Source: a virus (taxonomy: Duplodnaviria > Caudoviricetes). Taken from it: 36,675 nucleotides of DNA. The notes under the pieces are model-generated. The model searched no databases and was not told the DNA's origin. It was given only the letters and a program-made list of their open reading frames with translations. The first letter of the stretch is position 1. Every line of letters starts with the position of its first letter. The translations under genes and the position numbers were made by a program. The stretch is from the IMG/VR virus record IMGVR_UViG_3300017727_000050, positions 1 through 36,675 of that record. One strand, written 5' to 3'. Positions 13 through 36,675 of the stretch are shown in pieces.

Positions 13-63
13 TAAATGGGAGGTTCTCTGGATAGGACCCGCTTATTTTTAGTGACTTAGGCA
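13..63. repeat. Terminal direct repeat, left copy (51 nt), indicating a circular/complete genome
   Basis: TAAATGGGAGG...GACTTAGGCA is identical to 36625-36675; nt 1-12 do not match 36613-36624. Confidence 0.95.
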
Positions 64-852: not shown

Positions 853-3294
853 CTAAGCAGTCGATTTCGCATCATTTGAGCCGATCCAAAACAGCCTTTC
901 CGCTGCCCGGATTGCGCCCTCCTCTTTCACCTTTCGCATTTCGAGGTCCGGCATCTTTGCAAGTTTCAGGTCAAACGCGCCCCGGGATAAATGGGCTGAC
1001 CGTAATGCGCTCCGCAAAAGCAAACCCTTATCGCCTGCCTCTTTCACCATCTCAACCCATTTTTCTTGCTTGCTCATTTGCTCTTTTGTTTTTTCAATTA
1101 ATAGCGGAAAAAGCAATTCTTTTTGCATATCTGCAAACCATTTCACAAATCCACAGGCCCGCACAGCATCCTCTTTCATTAAAGGCTTAGAGAAAGGATT
1201 GTCGTAATTTTCCGCCATGTGGAGGACGATTGCGAGCCTGTAGGCGTTCTCAGCGTATCGGTTGTGGAACGACGCCAGCGACTCGATTGGCTCCTCCCGA
1301 CTCGCCTTCGCGCATAGATTGTAGTAACTCTTCATCGCATCCGTGAAGCTTGAGGTTTGCGGAATCTTGCCGAGCTGCTCAGGCACAGGCTTGGCGCGGT
1401 AAGCGGAAAACAGGTGTTCGATTATTTCGGCCCAAAGGCTGTGAGCTTTTGCATCGAAATCAATATCCTCAGGCCAATCCTGCACCTCTGCCTCAGAATC
1501 GTGCATAAGGAATCGTGCCAGAAACCCTCCCTCGATCTTGTTCGAATCCTCAAGGATCGAAAGGAAAGCATGTGGCTGAGTCATCCACGATATGCCGAGC
1601 GTCGCTCCTGTCAGACTGTGAGACTCGCTTTTTCGGTCGTAGCTAACGGCATCGCCCGAATACAGATCGCACCAGGTCCCGTCGTCGTTCGTCCCTCTTT
1701 GGCTTGAATACCTGCCAGACATATTCTGGAACTGCTGCGATGCCTCTGCGCTCATGGAAAGAACAGTAGGATGCCAATTTCGCCCCAAATATCCCAGCAT
1801 CGTTTCCGTCGTCGTATCGCTTACAACCACCTTTTCTGGCGTAAGTAGCTTTTCAAGTTTCGACTTTTCCTCATACAATGACTCTGGATTACCTCCCTCG
1901 TCTAGCAGGTCTTTGATCTCATTCTCTAGCTCATCAAGTCGCTTTTGCGCGACCGGTGCGTGAACATTCTTCCGCTTTTCCTCTGCCTCCGCCGCTGCCT
2001 CGATGAGCGGTTTCATCACAGTTCTTTGCGTCCTCCCCTTCCCGGTTCCCGACTTCGCCAATGTCAAAATATACAGATTGCAATGCGAAACCATGCCCGG
2101 GAGTGAATCGACGACGACAGAGTTTCCTACGGCAGTTGAAATAGCCGAGAAGCAACAAGCCGCGACCATCGACTCAGGCACACCGTTTAATTCTGCCACA
2201 TTCTTGACGAATCCCTGCATATTAGAAGGAAGACCACTTGTGGGAAAAGGAATCAGCTCCTGTTCCAATTCCATCACCGCCTTTGCCTCTTGAGATGCCG
2301 ATTCTGACTCATCTAGTATCGAAACTGGTGTTGACTGGGCTTCGCGACTGGACCCGTAGCCCGTGGAAGACAGCTCCTTCGCTGCCGCGCTGAAATCTCC
2401 GCTGTGATTCAGAACGGCATAAAGCGCACCTGCCGTGTATGCCTTCTCCGAATCAAAATCTACTGTTGAGCTGTGAGAGTAAAAACTCCAAACATCCATC
2501 TTCGCATCGGGAGGATTGATTACGCCCGAAGTGCCGCTATCCTTCCCCGGCCGAGTCCACTTTAGCCGGTCGTGACTGCAAGGCGTCCACCCGTGTGACA
2601 AAAGAAGGCTCTCAAACGTTTCCTGAGTGGCTCGATTGCTGAAATCGTCGAGGGGTGTCTCGCCTGTCTGAGATTGCTCCGCCGCTTGCGACAGGTCTAT
2701 AATCCGGTCACTTTTTGGAACAAGCTTTTTCTCCACCGTCAATGGCGTGGCCGTTTCCTTGTAGATCGCGCCCGGATCCCATGACAGAAAACAGGCTCGA
2801 TCTGCGCCTTTGCATTTTCGGTCAATTTCGACTCCAAACGTCTCAGATACATGCTTCTGAGCCGTGTAGAATATATCGGCAGCGTCAGCTTGAGCGTTAG
2901 AAATTGCAAAAATTGCCTTCACTCCTTCACCAGATGGCGAAAGAAACGCGAGGTGGCAATGCTCGTCATTTCCCATATCGCTCCGAAGCCTTTCGGCCCT
3001 TTCGATGCTGAGTCCGTCGACATCCACGCAGATAAACGGTCGAGGAGTATGCGGAGCCGTTTTTGTGCGATGCGGCGTTGAGAAAAGCGATTGCGGAGTA
3101 ATTGCCGGGAGTCGTTTCTTCAATTCTCCGCGCTTGCCCTTGTCCTGCTCTCTCCTTATTTCCTCAATGAGCTTGTAATGCTTGCCTTTTGTCACGTCCT
3201 CCCATACCTGGCGAAGTGTTGTCTGGTCCGGCAGGTCGTCGGTAGAAAACACCGTTCTAAATTGGCTGAATGTAATCATTCTATTTTTGTGCAT
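853..3294 (-). CDS. Primase-helicase replication protein (VirE/BT4734-like N-terminal primase domain + DUF3987/YfjI-like P-loop domain)
   Basis: LKKRLPAITP, ICVDVD, FLSPSGEGVKA, ACFLSWDP in the N-terminal part; AKSGTGKG Walker A and GFLARFL in the C-terminal part. Confidence 0.8.
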   Translation of the reverse strand: MHKNRMITFSQFRTVFSTDDLPDQTTLRQVWEDVTKGKHYKLIEEIRREQDKGKRGELKKRLPAITPQSLFSTPHRTKTAPHTPRPFICVDVDGLSIERAERLRSDMGNDEHCHLAFLSPSGEGVKAIFAISNAQADAADIFYTAQKHVSETFGVEIDRKCKGADRACFLSWDPGAIYKETATPLTVEKKLVPKSDRIIDLSQAAEQSQTGETPLDDFSNRATQETFESLLLSHGWTPCSHDRLKWTRPGKDSGTSGVINPPDAKMDVWSFYSHSSTVDFDSEKAYTAGALYAVLNHSGDFSAAAKELSSTGYGSSREAQSTPVSILDESESASQEAKAVMELEQELIPFPTSGLPSNMQGFVKNVAELNGVPESMVAACCFSAISTAVGNSVVVDSLPGMVSHCNLYILTLAKSGTGKGRTQRTVMKPLIEAAAEAEEKRKNVHAPVAQKRLDELENEIKDLLDEGGNPESLYEEKSKLEKLLTPEKVVVSDTTTETMLGYLGRNWHPTVLSMSAEASQQFQNMSGRYSSQRGTNDDGTWCDLYSGDAVSYDRKSESHSLTGATLGISWMTQPHAFLSILEDSNKIEGGFLARFLMHDSEAEVQDWPEDIDFDAKAHSLWAEIIEHLFSAYRAKPVPEQLGKIPQTSSFTDAMKSYYNLCAKASREEPIESLASFHNRYAENAYRLAIVLHMAENYDNPFSKPLMKEDAVRACGFVKWFADMQKELLFPLLIEKTKEQMSKQEKWVEMVKEAGDKGLLLRSALRSAHLSRGAFDLKLAKMPDLEMRKVKEEGAIRAAERLFWIGSNDAKSTA

Positions 3295-5888: not shown

Positions 5889-6204
5889 CGCATTTTCCGG
5901 CTTTCTTGAGGCCGAAGATATTCCAGACGGCAAAGAAATCGAGGTGGAAATTGAGGGCGTCCGCATGGGGACGCGCAAAGACTTGGGCCGGGACGGTCGA
6001 GCAATCGAAAATCCGCTGATGAAAATCGTTGGAGTCAAAAAGGAAATGGTATTGAACAAAACCAATGCCCGGACCATCCGCCGACATCACGGCAACGAAA
6101 TGGATGAATGGCCTGGCAAAAAGATCACGCTATTCCGCTCAACTTGCGATGCGTTTGGAAAAAAGAACGTCCCGTGCATCCGGGTGAAAGGAAAAACATT
6201 ATGA
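5875..6204 (+). CDS. Phage hypothetical protein, possibly an ssDNA-binding/annealing partner
   Basis: GGAGG RBS; FLEAEDI, LNKTNA, WPGKKITLF pattern recalled from phage recombination modules. Confidence 0.6.
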   Translation: MKVSDAFSGFLEAEDIPDGKEIEVEIEGVRMGTRKDLGRDGRAIENPLMKIVGVKKEMVLNKTNARTIRRHHGNEMDEWPGKKITLFRSTCDAFGKKNVPCIRVKGKTL

Positions 6205-7274
6205 AAATAACAGTAAATAAATCAGAACTGGCAGCTGCCTTGAAAGCAGCCGGTAAAACTTGCAGCTCGCACGGGAATATTCCCGTCCTGTCGAACGTCA
6301 AAATTTCCACCGCAGACGCAGGCGATAGTTTTTTCATTGAGTCCACCAATCTGGACCAATACACGTCTATTGAGGTTGAGGCTGATGTCGTCGAGAAAGG
6401 CGAAGTTTTGGTCCCCTTTCGTAGACTGAACTCGATTATCGCAAACTTGGAAGGCGAGACTGTAGAGCTTGAATCTAAAGGCTCAAAAACCGAAATCCGA
6501 TCCGGGCGTTTTCGGGCGTCTGTTGAGGGAGTCGATGTTGCTGATTGGCCGCAATGCTCAATGGAAATCAATCGAGCGTATGACATTAAGGCCAATCAGC
6601 TATCGAACGCGATACAGAGCGTGATCGGCTGCGTTTCTGCCGATGAGTCTCGCTATGTTCTGAATGGTGTATTTCTGGAGTGTGTCGACTCTGTGGTTAG
6701 TATAGTCGCTACTGACGGGCGACAGCTAGCCGTGCATTCGTTCGAGGCAGATTGGAACGACTTCAATGTGGTAATCCCTACATTGGCCGCTGACGCTATT
6801 CTCGATGCGTGTCGAGGCGAAGCCAATATTGAAATCGCTCTGGGAGACAATTCTGTAGGAGTAGCGACAGACACGGCAAGAACCTGGTCAAAAACAATCG
6901 CAGGCAAATTCCCAGAGTGGCGCAGAGTGATGCCGGATGAGTCGGCAATGAGAACTTTTCCCGCTCCGCACAAAAAGCTCCTCGGCATTCTTCGTCGAGT
7001 CGGATTGATTGCCGATCCCCGGATCGGATGCGTTCGGCTCGACGGGAGTGCTGATGGGATTACCGTTTCATCATCGAACGCGGGAGAATCAGCGTCGGAG
7101 AAACTGGAATGCGAGTCGCCCGAGTTTGGCGTTTCCGTGAATCACGATTTCCTAGCGAAGATGCTTGCGACCATCGACGGCGAATCGGTCGATATTAAAG
7201 TGGGCGAGAACGAATCGCCAGTTTTGATCAAATCAGATGGCCTCAAATATATTATCATGCCGATGCGTAAATAA
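6201..7274 (+). CDS. dnaN: DNA polymerase III beta sliding clamp
   Basis: IPVLSNVKI, STNLD, ESRYVLNGVFL, VATDGRQLA, GKFPEWRRVMP, YIIMPMR; ~357 aa; start trimmed to 6201. Confidence 0.93.
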   Translation: MKITVNKSELAAALKAAGKTCSSHGNIPVLSNVKISTADAGDSFFIESTNLDQYTSIEVEADVVEKGEVLVPFRRLNSIIANLEGETVELESKGSKTEIRSGRFRASVEGVDVADWPQCSMEINRAYDIKANQLSNAIQSVIGCVSADESRYVLNGVFLECVDSVVSIVATDGRQLAVHSFEADWNDFNVVIPTLAADAILDACRGEANIEIALGDNSVGVATDTARTWSKTIAGKFPEWRRVMPDESAMRTFPAPHKKLLGILRRVGLIADPRIGCVRLDGSADGITVSSSNAGESASEKLECESPEFGVSVNHDFLAKMLATIDGESVDIKVGENESPVLIKSDGLKYIIMPMRK

Positions 7275-11897: not shown

Positions 11898-12122
11898 ATG
11901 CAAGGCGACTTAAACAATTTCAACCTAGACGATTTGCATTGGCGAGCTGCGGAATCGCGTCTGGATAAAATCAAAATGAAGTTGTTCGAGTCGCCGCATC
12001 TTTTCACAGTTCTCGATTCCGTTATGACCGATCTGGAATTGTGGGATGATCCCCAACCAACCGACTACGCTCTAAATCTTATTTTGCAGTCTGAATCGAG
12101 AGAAAATAAAGATGGAAGATAG
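11898..12122 (+). CDS. Hypothetical protein
   Basis: ATG 4 nt after the SSB stop; 74 aa. Confidence 0.55.
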   Translation: MQGDLNNFNLDDLHWRAAESRLDKIKMKLFESPHLFTVLDSVMTDLELWDDPQPTDYALNLILQSESRENKDGR

Positions 12123-12363
12123 TTCGATATTTGAGGCATTGCAGCGAGCCGGAGCGGATTCGGTCGACTGTGATTACGAGGACGCCAAGCAGGACGGATG
12201 GCGAACGATTGATGATCTTGCAGTGCTGGCCGATTGTGGCCGAAGCACGATCACTCGACTCATGCGCTTGTCCGTCGCCGATGGAACTTGGGAGACGAAA
12301 AAGGTTAGACTATCTGGAGGCCGAAAGGCTGCAGCATACCGGGAAATCTTAAACAAAGAATAG
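12112..12363 (+). CDS. Hypothetical protein, possible winged HTH
   Basis: TIDDLAVLADCGRSTITRLM resembles an HTH. Confidence 0.55.
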   Translation: MEDSSIFEALQRAGADSVDCDYEDAKQDGWRTIDDLAVLADCGRSTITRLMRLSVADGTWETKKVRLSGGRKAAAYREILNKE

Positions 12364-12366
12364 AAC

Positions 12367-12639
12367 ATGCAAGACTACTGGAATGATCCGCCCGAAGAAC
12401 CGGAATTACCTGAATGGATTTGCCAAATTGAGGACTGTATCGAAGAGGCAATCGGATTTTCGAACGAAGCAAAGGAACGAATAAATGCCGGCCACAAGCA
12501 CGATAACCGACCGGCGGCATTCACTGAGTCGGTAAATAATCTGCAAAGATCGGTCAGGTCGCTTGCTCAAGCAGTTGAATTTCTACTTAGACGAACCGAG
12601 CGAACCGAGCGAACCAAAAAGAAAACGAATCATGAGTGA
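12367..12639 (+). CDS. Hypothetical protein
   Basis: 90-aa ORF beginning MQDYWNDPPEEPE. Confidence 0.6.
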   Translation: MQDYWNDPPEEPELPEWICQIEDCIEEAIGFSNEAKERINAGHKHDNRPAAFTESVNNLQRSVRSLAQAVEFLLRRTERTERTKKKTNHE

Positions 12640-12694
12640 CCAAAGCGAATCAACTACAACTGTCCCTGAGCTTGGCTCGACTGCCTTGTTCGCT
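12592..12694. repeat. attC-like site 0 (degenerate left arm with CGAACCGAG tandem repeats; right end TGCCTTGTTCGCT)
   Basis: Right arm TTGGCTCGACTGCCTTGTTC is partly complementary to GAACCGAGCGAACCAA; contains ATG 12632. Confidence 0.4.
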
Positions 12695-12970
12695 GCCTTT
12701 GGTGCAAAAATCAGATGGTGCGACGAAAAGGCGAAGGAGTGTTACGAATGCCGGGAGGAAGACTGCTCAGACATCGGAAAATACTACGATGCGGCAAAGA
12801 CTGAAATCACAAGATTCCGAAACGAACTTTTCCCAGAAGAAAAACCGGGCAACGCTGAGAAAGATGGCGTTGCGACTGTGAGATGTCCCGAATGCAAGAT
12901 TACGATCGGTTCATGTTGGGCCAACGGTCATTGTCCAGGTTGCGGTCATTTTATCAAAGCGAACGATTGA
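12632..12970 (+). CDS. Cassette 1 protein, Cys-rich (CxxC pairs)
   Basis: Cassette body bounded by GTTCGCT (12688) and AGCGAAC (12958-12964). Confidence 0.6.
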   Translation: MSDQSESTTTVPELGSTALFAAFGAKIRWCDEKAKECYECREEDCSDIGKYYDAAKTEITRFRNELFPEEKPGNAEKDGVATVRCPECKITIGSCWANGHCPGCGHFIKAND

Positions 12971-13043
12971 GGACATCCAGCGAGGAAAAGACTATGGAAA
13001 AACAAACGACGTTATCGAGCTTGGATGCTCCCACTTGTTCTCC
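12958..13043. repeat. attC-like site 1 (82-nt direct repeat, copy 1)
   Basis: 12961-13042 matches 13482-13563 at 80/82 nt; GAAC...GGACATCCAGCGA...TCGAGCTTGGATGCTCC...GTTC forms an imperfect hairpin. Confidence 0.85.
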
Positions 13044-13491
13044 TGTGATTTTTGATCATCGGGTATGGAAAAACTGGGAGGGTGGAACTCTGGAGGCCGT
13101 CGAGATGCTAAACGCCATGTTGAAAAAACACGGCTTAAAAATCAACGTCGATTGGGACTGGCCGAACGATTACACGGAGGTTTCAATTTTGAAGGAGAAT
13201 GCCTTGTTCTGCCAAGAGTATTTGGGTCGCCCGTGGGAGCCAACTCCCGAAGAGAAGCGGCTGCGTGAACTCGCGGCACAATACCACGAAGAGACGGAAT
13301 CCTACGACCGAACCGTTTGCACGGGGCCGATCCGAAACGGCGCGATCATGCCGATGGGGTCGGGGGAACATGCAGCGATCAATCGAAACGCCTTGGCCGT
13401 GAGGGAACGCCTTGGCGCAGAGGTGGCCGAGCTTGGATTCACCAAAAAGGAGTGGCAACACGCCATCGCCAATTTCAGGCAGAACGATTGA
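12994..13491 (+). CDS. Fused cassette 2+3 hypothetical protein
   Basis: Starts MEKQTTLSSLDAPTCS inside the repeat; internal junction GGAGAAT-GCCTT-GTTCTGCC at 13194-13213; ends QND*. Confidence 0.65.
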   Translation: MEKQTTLSSLDAPTCSPVIFDHRVWKNWEGGTLEAVEMLNAMLKKHGLKINVDWDWPNDYTEVSILKENALFCQEYLGRPWEPTPEEKRLRELAAQYHEETESYDRTVCTGPIRNGAIMPMGSGEHAAINRNALAVRERLGAEVAELGFTKKEWQHAIANFRQND

Positions 13492-13565
13492 GGACATCCA
13501 GCGAGGAAAAGACTATGGAAAAACAAACGACGTTACCGAGCTTGGATGCTCCGACTTGTTCTCGG
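13478..13565. repeat. attC-like site 2 (82-nt direct repeat, copy 2)
   Basis: Near-identical to site 1 but with outer ends GGCAGAAC / GTTCTCGG. Confidence 0.85.
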
Positions 13566-13802
13566 TCGATCCACAAGAGCCGTTTTGGGACATTCCGGGA
13601 AGCGACCGTTGGAGACTGGCAATGTCGCCGATGTGGGCGTGTGGTGAAAGAAGAATCTTTCGAGCGAATTTCAAAATCAATCGGGTATCGATGGCCTTTA
13701 TGCGCTTGCTCAACGTGGAAATTTGAAAATTCAGATTGGCGTAAACTTAGAGAGAAAGACATTTTTTCCGAGAACACCCAAGATCGCGAGCCTGCGGAGT
13801 AG
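13515..13802 (+). CDS. Cassette 4 hypothetical protein (CxxC...CxC)
   Basis: Starts MEKQTTLPSLDAPTCS inside the repeat; bounded by GTTCTCGG (13558) and CCGAGAAC (13768-13775). Confidence 0.6.
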   Translation: MEKQTTLPSLDAPTCSRSIHKSRFGTFREATVGDWQCRRCGRVVKEESFERISKSIGYRWPLCACSTWKFENSDWRKLREKDIFSENTQDREPAE

Positions 13803-13826
13803 GTCTTGCGAATCGCTTTGCTCGCA
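13768..13826. repeat. attC-like site 3 (divergent sequence, same fold)
   Basis: GAGAAC...GATCGCGAGCCT-loop-AGGTCTTGCGAATC...TTTGCTC; right arm has extra unpaired bases. Confidence 0.6.
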
Positions 13827-13828
13827 GA

Positions 13829-14569
13829 TCAAACAGGCGAGATGAACTTGCCCGTTTCTCCCTTTCGGCAAAACCAAAGTTCCCAATCTGATTTGCCGCT
13901 TTTGGATTGGTGAATTTCGCCAAATGCCCATCCATTCTCATGCGCCAATTTGCGCGGAGTCTTGGCGTTGTAAGGCATGTCGATTTTACAGAGTGCGCCT
14001 ACGCTAATTCCTTCCGCCCGGGAGAGTGACGAATCGGCGAAACGTGAGAAGGAGTGAACGTGGCCCTGCACTACGCCAGTGCCGCTGCCTTTATAGATTC
14101 CTATTGCCTGGCGAGCTGCCGCTACGCCTGCATGGTAGCCGTGAATGAATTGCAGCTGTCCCAATTTCAAGACGCCACTTCTTACGTCGTAGGGCAAAAC
14201 CTCTGCGTTTTTCCACGACTTGTTTTGCTCGATTTCCTGCACGAGTCTCCCGCACAGATCGCGCATGTTTCCATTCGTCGAACATTTTGCCGATTGCCAC
14301 AATCTCTCGTCGTGATTGCCTCGCAGGATGTAATCCGGGCGGTATGCGTCGAGAAGGGCGATTCCCGTAATGCAATCGCGCTCCATCGACTCGGCTCGTT
14401 CTTCCGCCCCTGCTCCATTTCGCAAAGGTCGAAAGTCGAACACGTCGCCGCCGTGAATTTTTACGTGAGGTTTCCACCTGTCAGCAAACGACAAAAACGC
14501 ATTTACGGTTTCGTCGTCCTGCTGATCGCCGTGGCTGTCGGTTCCAAATAAGAATCTTTTTATTCCCAT
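13829..14569 (-). CDS. Calcineurin-like metallophosphoesterase
   Basis: TDSHG, GGDVFD, RGNHD, IHG, QGHVH motifs. Confidence 0.88.
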   Translation of the reverse strand: MGIKRFLFGTDSHGDQQDDETVNAFLSFADRWKPHVKIHGGDVFDFRPLRNGAGAEERAESMERDCITGIALLDAYRPDYILRGNHDERLWQSAKCSTNGNMRDLCGRLVQEIEQNKSWKNAEVLPYDVRSGVLKLGQLQFIHGYHAGVAAARQAIGIYKGSGTGVVQGHVHSFSRFADSSLSRAEGISVGALCKIDMPYNAKTPRKLAHENGWAFGEIHQSKSGKSDWELWFCRKGETGKFISPV

Positions 14570-22569: not shown

Positions 22570-23193
22570 ATGGACCTTGAAATTGATTTGACGGAGTTTA
22601 GGAGGACGCTGAACGAATACGTGAAAGCGAACAAGCGGGAATCGTCAGATTTGATAAACAAGAAAGCGAAAGATATTGCTTTCCGGGCGGCGAAACACGT
22701 CGACAATGCAAAGGCTCCTGATATTACTGCTTTGGGTGCGCCCCATAAGCCGCGAAAGCAAGGCAGCAGAGCCAAGCCTAGAAATAAAACAAACACTTTA
22801 TTTCATGCGTTGGCATCGAAGGGTAATAAATTTGGAAAAGCTCCGCGAGGAAAGGGAAACTATGACGTGGCTAGGCAGACTTTTGACTCTCGCAAAAGAT
22901 CAATCGGCTACTCCAAGGCAATGTTTATAAAGCTCGCAAAGCAGTTGATAAAAAAGCCTTTTGATTTTACCAAAAATCCGCATGCAAAAGGTAGGGCATC
23001 CATCGACGACACATCTGCAAAAATATCTACTCCGGCAACATTGACTGCATTGCTCCACATCCCCGGGCTTGACTCAAACCACTACGCCAAAGTAATGAAG
23101 CCAGCGTTGGAAAAAGCAATTCGAGAAGCAACTGCTGACATGCAAAAGTATCTGGCAGATAAGTTGCAAAAGGTCGCTGATAAATACAGCTAG
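22570..23193 (+). CDS. Basic virion morphogenesis protein (HK97 gp10/neck Ne1-like), in inverted orientation
   Basis: 207 aa, Lys/Arg-rich; MDLEIDLTEFRRTL start and VMKPALEKAI end; the only + strand gene in the late arm. Confidence 0.55.
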   Translation: MDLEIDLTEFRRTLNEYVKANKRESSDLINKKAKDIAFRAAKHVDNAKAPDITALGAPHKPRKQGSRAKPRNKTNTLFHALASKGNKFGKAPRGKGNYDVARQTFDSRKRSIGYSKAMFIKLAKQLIKKPFDFTKNPHAKGRASIDDTSAKISTPATLTALLHIPGLDSNHYAKVMKPALEKAIREATADMQKYLADKLQKVADKYS

Positions 23194-36624: not shown

Positions 36625-36675
36625 TAAATGGGAGGTTCTCTGGATAGGACCCGCTTATTTTTAGTGACTTAGGCA
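36625..36675. repeat. Terminal direct repeat, right copy
   Basis: Identical to 13-63. Confidence 0.95.
36646..36652 (-). other. cosQ-like element GGGTCCT (also at 34-40)
   Basis: Minus strand CGGGTCCTATCCAGAGAACC, about 80 nt upstream of the small terminase gene. Confidence 0.6.

Follow-up and report, generated by a model that had tools for sequence, protein, structure and literature searches.

How can a phage that encodes no tyrosine recombinase carry a row of genes bounded by integron-type recombination sites, and which enzyme would move them? The question is raised by the 36,675-base viral record analysed here (referred to as the window), for which a preliminary description had proposed an integrase-free, integron-like cassette array with GTTC/GAAC cores. 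The record has a completeness rating of 100%, and a 51-base overlap joins window positions 13–63 and 36625–36675, with the start offset by 12 bases, which suggests that the assembly is complete and circularly permuted, even though the record's class is linear. Scanning of 48 ORFs identified a lambda-type terminase and portal, a capsid–protease fusion, two DNA methylases, a beta clamp, a helicase, and an exonuclease VIII-like gene. The plus-strand replication block ends in the array, which converges on its conserved right flank, a metallophosphoesterase gene (13829–14569, minus strand). Comparison with relatives identified the core gene that closes the replication/recombination block (12112–12363, plus strand) as the conserved left flank; it is followed by a variable gene (12367–12639, plus strand) that is missing from the related contig L101 and of which only the start is kept in the related contig L102. 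Elsewhere in the genome, the beta clamp (6108–7274, plus strand) belongs to a separate cluster with 69–93% identity among relatives and ~30% to other beta clamps, and a lone plus-strand ORF of 207 aa (22570–23193), with look-alikes among viral hypothetical proteins only, is located within the minus-strand tail block. The array DNA had no match in the cultured-phage collection, where terminase relatives were at ~30% identity or below, nothing in Rfam matched within the array region, and a promoter and terminator scan gave chance-level results.

A sequence check located all four pairs of complementary ends that had been assigned to four consecutive segments. In the four bases outside GTT/AAC, each segment start agreed with its own end at 4/4 positions and with the ends of other segments at 1–3/4. 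The imperfect hairpins reported between the segments were intact in geometry at two sites (sites 1 and 3), whereas the others turned out to be a half-site, a collapsed site, and a decayed terminal site. With three of the five junctions in the window array decayed, only some units would still move.

Site 1 (12958–13043, attC top strand on the minus strand) has the geometry of the published aadA7 bottom strand. Read on the plus strand, its left arm comprises R' (12958–12964), a 6-nt spacer, and L' (12971–12977), and its right arm L'' (13024–13031), a 5-nt spacer, and R'' (13037–13043), with extra bases at 13021/13022 (T) and within L'' (C at 13028), a loop holding GAGG and the ATG at 12994, and a predicted AA|C crossover at 12963/12964. 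Site 3 (13479–13564, minus strand), whose loop contains the ATG at 13515 and whose predicted crossover is at 13484/13485, is likewise intact and nearly identical to site 1; the two form an 82-bp direct repeat (98% by the repeat finder score) and differ at two diagnostic bases. In both, the L box pairs at 7/7 positions and the right arm carries two extra bases.

Site 0 (12608–12694, minus strand) is the right half of an attC-type site, with L'' at 12675–12682 and R'' (GTTCGCT) at 12688–12694, and it contains the start codon of c1 (12632). Its left arm has been lost, and L-box pairing is just 1/7. One contig from run X2, with a loose end before 12619, retains a left arm that pairs at 7/7 positions with the window L''. 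In place of this arm, window positions 12589–12617 hold a 9-base unit repeated about three times, which codes for the end of the upstream gene. The motif AGCGAAC at 12608–12614 was considered as an R' box and rejected, since the contigs place these letters in the loop of the site whose left arm was lost. The collapsed site (13194–13213, minus strand) consists of the cores GGAGAAT and GTTCTGCC separated by 5 nt; its left core reads AAT, the hairpin body is missing, and c2a is fused to c2b. It presumably arose by hairpin deletion, and Loot et al. (bioRxiv 10.1101/2022.09.11.507474) describe, in the part of their report that bears on this, hairpins that are readily deleted. The terminal site (13769–13826, minus strand; predicted crossover 13774/13775) forms the fixed right end of the array. 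Its L box is paired at 6/7 positions and its R'' core has decayed to GCT in place of the GTT that is retained in L101 and L102; the counterparts in L101, L102, and the related contig L106 are 80–89% identical. To the right of the terminal hairpin, L101 and L102 carry ~420–500 bases with promoter-like sequence and two short ORFs, which the window lacks. At the other end of the relatives' arrays, the two cores of the leftmost L101 site are complementary over 7 bases across the same hairpin, and in the leftmost half-sites of L102 and L003 the right arm alone is evident; these odd leftmost sites may bear on array seeding.

Three plus-strand genes are distributed over these sites. c1 (12632–12970, 112 aa) has no family and ends at a stop codon in the site 1 spacer, and c2 (12994–13491, 165 aa) starts inside site 1 and stops inside site 3. 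The latter consists of two cassettes, c2a and c2b, fused in frame. c2b matches phrog_27964, and its four homologues (95–136 aa, with unrelated N-termini) are stand-alone forms of the second half of c2; a c2b protein-pattern search of viral contigs gave 36 candidates, none of which was confirmed. In some runs, contig coverage of c2a was broken by gaps, which were given no weight as evidence. c3 (13515–13802) encodes a Cys-rich protein of 95 aa that has a 16-residue, hairpin-encoded N-terminus in common with c2, with one change; its hexamer score is ~0, so that its coding status is weakly supported, and its atlas matches are viral hypothetical proteins only (0.90–0.91).

The attC character of the intact sites was evaluated feature by feature. 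Sites 1 and 3 have an AAC inverse core and a GTT core at their ends, the spacing R''–5 nt–L'' (8, with an extra base)…L' (7)–6 nt–R' on the minus strand with 7/7 pairing, and extrahelical bases at attC positions, their identity being C and T where G and T are usual on the bottom strand. An attC-geometry detector found two genome sites at a score of at least 11, against 0.07 expected in Markov-2 sequences; this detector under-counts, because it missed the published H101 and TJE1 sites, whose strands were taken from motif matches. Predicted folding gave the expected stem, although weakly, with free energies of −8.1 and −7.7 kcal/mol for the two intact sites and z ~0 relative to base shuffles. 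Compared with attCaadA7 and VCR as presented in the relevant sections of PMC2727003, the window sites share R and L boxes, 6-nt and 5-nt spacers, the extra bases on the R''–L'' arm, the G after the bottom-strand AAC, and own-end complementarity; they differ in their bottom-strand gene, the start codon in the loop, and the weak predicted folding, and the family differs in a first extra base that is mostly C rather than G and a core that is mostly GTTC rather than GTTR. These results bear out the identification of the segments as integron-type cassettes with attC-type sites.

The same geometry fixes the polarity of the array. In plus-strand order, each intact site consists of AAC, 6 nt, a 7-nt L', loop, an 8-nt L'' with the extra base, 5 nt, and GTT, and the attCaadA7 bottom strand has this AAC-first layout (PMC9892861, as tabulated in Table S3), so the coding strand of the window corresponds to the attC bottom strand. 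The extra bases that had been noted in the right arm are indeed present; however, their consequence, an inversion of polarity relative to the genes, had been overlooked. Bouvier 2009 (PMC2727003), in the passages on site structure, assigns the extra bases to the R''–L'' arm and has a G following AAC on the bottom strand, and extra bases in the right arm therefore mean that the window sites are inverted relative to their genes. The typical layout, with the gene on the top strand and attC downstream, is reversed in the window, where the hairpin precedes the gene in each cassette. A class 3 integron served as a control: with the same detector, its bottom strand was opposite the genes. Bottom-strand gene polarity predicts joint movement of each hairpin and the gene that follows it, with crossover at the left AA|C.

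No tyrosine recombinase was found in the window genome, in agreement with the preliminary description: PF00589 had no match at E values up to 10, whereas the same search matched in 14/14 control genomes. An intI gene is thus absent by this search, and no attI or Pc was recognised at the array, as judged without an attI model. With at least two clustered attC sites and no intI nearby, the array qualifies as a CALIN. A separate hairpin-recombination system, built on a GTTC/GAAC core of its own and an enzyme so far unrecognised, would suit a genome that lacks a tyrosine recombinase and contains several genes without family, and it was the second option of the preliminary description. However, attC is matched in spacer and box lengths, in the positions of the extra bases, and in the G that follows AAC, GTTC is ordinary in host arrays, and GTTA and GTTG cores are used within the same related phage arrays as well. 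The window sites, having GTTC cores, depart from the GTTRRRY/RYYYAAC consensus past the triplet; because GTTC forms the core of 21/36 sites in genome arrays and of 9/14 in IntI-bearing loci, the long consensus does not define this family. GTTC is the commonest core of the Verrucomicrobiota arrays (GAAC 20/36; the 36-site count omits four loci judged chance or weak), and the idea of a distinct GTTC/GAAC system was abandoned; we consider it hardly credible. The array behaves like an integron cassette array, and it is neither a complete integron nor a new recombination chemistry.

To characterise the family, 195 inter-site segments were reduced to 170 unique sequences and 166 clusters (52 viral, 23 genome, and 91 metagenome). 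The loci were collected by phage-site patterns and represent one site family rather than an unbiased census. The metagenome set covers 124 of ~290 stretches, a 15-base pattern matched 91 stretches, mostly by chance, so that only full-hairpin stretches were used, and one locus (L181), being the window's own sequence, was excluded from all counts. Among single-ORF clusters, own-end complementarity was complete (4/4) in 30/33 viral, 12/12 genome, and, among the matches listed, 57/70 metagenome cassettes, against shuffled means of 1.6, 1.6, and 4.1, respectively, whereas complementarity across the junction was found in 1/33, 0/12, and, again among the matches listed, 3/68. The findings uphold the earlier proposal that own-end complementarity reflects the circular junction of the cassette. 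In addition, end complementarity extended beyond the 7-base R box (at least five outer bases) in 25/33 viral versus 6/15 genome cassettes, and the median cassette length was 232 bp in phages versus 469 bp in genome arrays.

The reversed polarity distinguishes the phage cassettes as a group. Gene strand was assigned with a hexamer model (training set: 134 long ORFs of the collected loci), because ORF length left 11/33 viral cassettes ambiguous and called 3 normal, and counts were restricted to clusters with 4/4 ends (33, 15, and 68), the others, which probably span missed sites, being dropped. Genes were on the bottom strand in 32/33 viral cassettes, compared with 2/15 genome and, among the matches listed, 8/68 metagenome cassettes (Fisher p = 7e-9 and 1e-17, respectively). 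Moreover, the AAC of the next site was in frame for 19/20 phage genes that extend to it. A stop codon directly after AAC was not clearly enriched in phage sites (11/54 vs. 12/108, p = 0.15). Only 6/54 phage sites had an open ATG together with a ribosome-binding motif in their loop, indicating that the loop-start layout of the window is not universal. G followed AAC in 52/54 phage sites, and the extra L-box base was C in 99/108 host-type sites; the first value was set in part by patterns and filters and the second in part by the search patterns.

Exchange of these cassettes in nature was evident from related contigs, and the proposal that they are mobile held. L101 and L102, which were found via a flanking gene, have flanks 85–95% identical and unrelated cassettes that meet the terminal hairpin at its GAAC; the same site thus occurs in related phages with other cassettes, and a fixed ORF order, which would have spoken against mobility, is not the case, as content varies at the locus. 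Contigs from runs X1, X2, and X12 provided three further upstream sequences ending at 13770–13772, X1 and X2 being possible source samples of the phage DNA. The site 3 hairpin also heads a different cassette on other contigs. This cassette, headed by the window hairpin, was present on five further contigs, of which four are viral and one is metagenomic; identity there runs from the left AAC to the next AAC, and the neighbours on each side are five different ones. In all-against-all comparison, eight viral junction pairs began at the left AAC and none ended at the right GTT, with six of the eight derived from one cassette. These comparisons showed that each exchanged unit begins with the C of one 5'-AAC and finishes with the AA of the next, and that hairpin and gene move together.

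A different account would hold that the sites, though derived from attC, now act as homology anchors and translation-start modules, exchanged through homologous recombination by the phage or its host with no part for IntI; they would then resemble the conserved-boundary or promoter/stem-loop cassettes seen in other phages. Several observations are consistent with it. The near-identity of sites 1 and 3 extends over 82 bp, their predicted folding is weak, and the phage encodes an exonuclease VIII-like protein. In the contigs L209 and L230, c1 is followed by site 3 and c3, with c2 missing, and run X9 has the same joint (12960–13482); because it falls between near-identical repeats, homologous recombination explains these three cases equally well. 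Furthermore, one hairpin heads three different genes, and among the metagenome junction pairs in the matches listed, 11 began at the left AAC and seven ended at the right GTT; these seven pairs, together with the three genes, indicate that exchange also takes place away from the R' crossover. However, the exchanged blocks run from the left AAC, next to unrelated flanks, to the next AAC, and end before unrelated hairpins, the viral pairs stand at eight to none in favour of the left AAC, albeit with six from one cassette, and own-end complementarity would have no use in homologous recombination. We therefore regard homology anchors as an unlikely explanation of the array as a whole. The cassette circles for which a search had been recommended were not recovered: neither a circle nor an excision joint between unlike sites was present in the contigs of 8 runs, from which assembly drops rare forms.

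The source of the recombinase was then sought among bacteria carrying the same sites. Parts of two papers (PMC4889954 and PMC8618304) list Verrucomicrobiota among the integron-bearing phyla, and the phage-site pattern matched 21 genome loci, comprising 17 in Verrucomicrobiota, one in Planctomycetota, and three others, many of them being long arrays whose genes occupy the opposite strand. ORFs adjoining the arrays of three Verrucomicrobiota loci (L107, L111, and L127) scored above the TIGR02249 integron-integrase cut-off (3/3 proteins), and an IntI gene above the cut-off was found in 4/5 genomes tested. These integrons are alike to the phage array in site family, core usage, and extra-base identity, but differ in possessing IntI and in having genes on the top strand in 13/15 cases. 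The earlier suggestion that the enzyme comes from the host or is unrecognised was thus narrowed: an IntI-like gene is linked to this site family in bacteria, and an unrecognised enzyme is not needed. The L107 array itself contains a reversed cassette (2384–2674, plus strand) whose gene matches phrog_6724, and this suggests some traffic between the phage and host pools; the start of a second phage-like ORF lies at 6107–6403 of the same locus. Verrucomicrobiota are the presumed host. Terminase relatives in 401 Verrucomicrobiota genomes reached 28–31% identity at most and named DnaN relatives 28–30%, values that do not pinpoint a particular host.

The recombinase might also be the IntI of co-infecting phages or islands rather than of the host chromosome, the phage hitchhiking on a phage-specific integron lineage. 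The strong orientation split, which suggests largely separate pools, is in line with such a source. Against it, none of the 11 phage records searched contained IntI (one has a phage-type tyrosine recombinase, at 24.7 bits versus the cut-off of 265), host IntI adjoins the same site family, and the reversed cassette with a phage-family gene resides inside the L107 host array. A co-infecting source thus appears quite improbable, more so than homology anchors. The explanation that we regard as likely is an integrase-free array of Verrucomicrobiota-family attC sites, inverted relative to the genes and exchanged by a host integron integrase, whose action on the phage array we infer from the shared sites and the natural breakpoints.

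Part of this picture has precedent. Phage CALINs have already been published: in the available text of Qi et al. 2023 (PMC9892861), 17 were reported, 5/6 tested phage sites recombined with attI1 under IntI1 with a preference for the bottom strand, and TJE1 and PH101 were called typical. These CALINs are likewise attC clusters without integrase in phages. In contrast, that text contains no mention of bottom-strand genes, Verrucomicrobiota-type sites, natural breakpoints, or frame preservation. In our own strand check, the TJE1 cassettes were in normal orientation. For H101 (NC_029094, 73500–80500), the attC bottom strand coincides with the strand of all 14 annotated genes, which is the reversed type. 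Because sites of this reversed phage recombined under IntI1 in the experiments described by Qi et al., reversed-cassette sites have in effect already been shown to be IntI1-competent. SALINs and attC × attG insertion, as treated in the portion of Loot et al. cited above that deals with them, are related in that IntI in trans can thereby seed cassettes outside integrons; they involve normal cassettes in bacterial genomes, and the origin of reversed cassettes is left unexplained there. A description of the reversed layout was not found in the non-subscription literature, including the accessible content of PMC4889954, PMC8618304, and PMC13323075.

A mechanism can be proposed on the basis of known integron chemistry. 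The substrate of IntI is the folded bottom strand, which it recombines at AAC, excision is an attC × attC reaction, and CALINs can be moved in trans, as stated in sections of PMC11389934 and bioRxiv 10.1101/2022.09.11.507474. Phage replication would expose the coding strand as a single strand, which would fold, and host IntI would cut the folded coding strand at AA|C. Cassettes would be excised by an attC × attC reaction, and incoming ones would be inserted ahead of a resident hairpin. The early transcript from upstream would then read through the array, and for c2 and c3 the hairpin loop would supply GAGG and ATG while the next site supplied the stop.

Beyond this locus, we tentatively suggest, as a real possibility short of a likelihood, that lytic phages run a mirror-image cassette pool on host IntI, in which crossover is in frame, one early transcript serves all units, and orientation acts as a firewall. 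If so, the reversed polarity would allow a single phage early transcript to read all cassettes, and the in-frame crossover would allow any cassette to follow any other. The firewall would keep host cassettes, which are often anti-phage, silent in a phage array and phage cassettes silent in a host integron. Arrays in which one hairpin is joined to several genes, each with a matching far end, would allow the birth of new cassettes to be observed.

In the usual view, integron cassettes are a bacterial toolkit and phage-borne ones are captured fragments. The array described here, with short phage-type genes, opposite polarity, and phage-to-phage exchange that falls precisely on the crossover base, points to the use of a host enzyme by phages to shuffle accessory genes. 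Two questions thereby become testable: does host IntI work on phage DNA as it replicates, and by what route do new cassettes gain matched ends?
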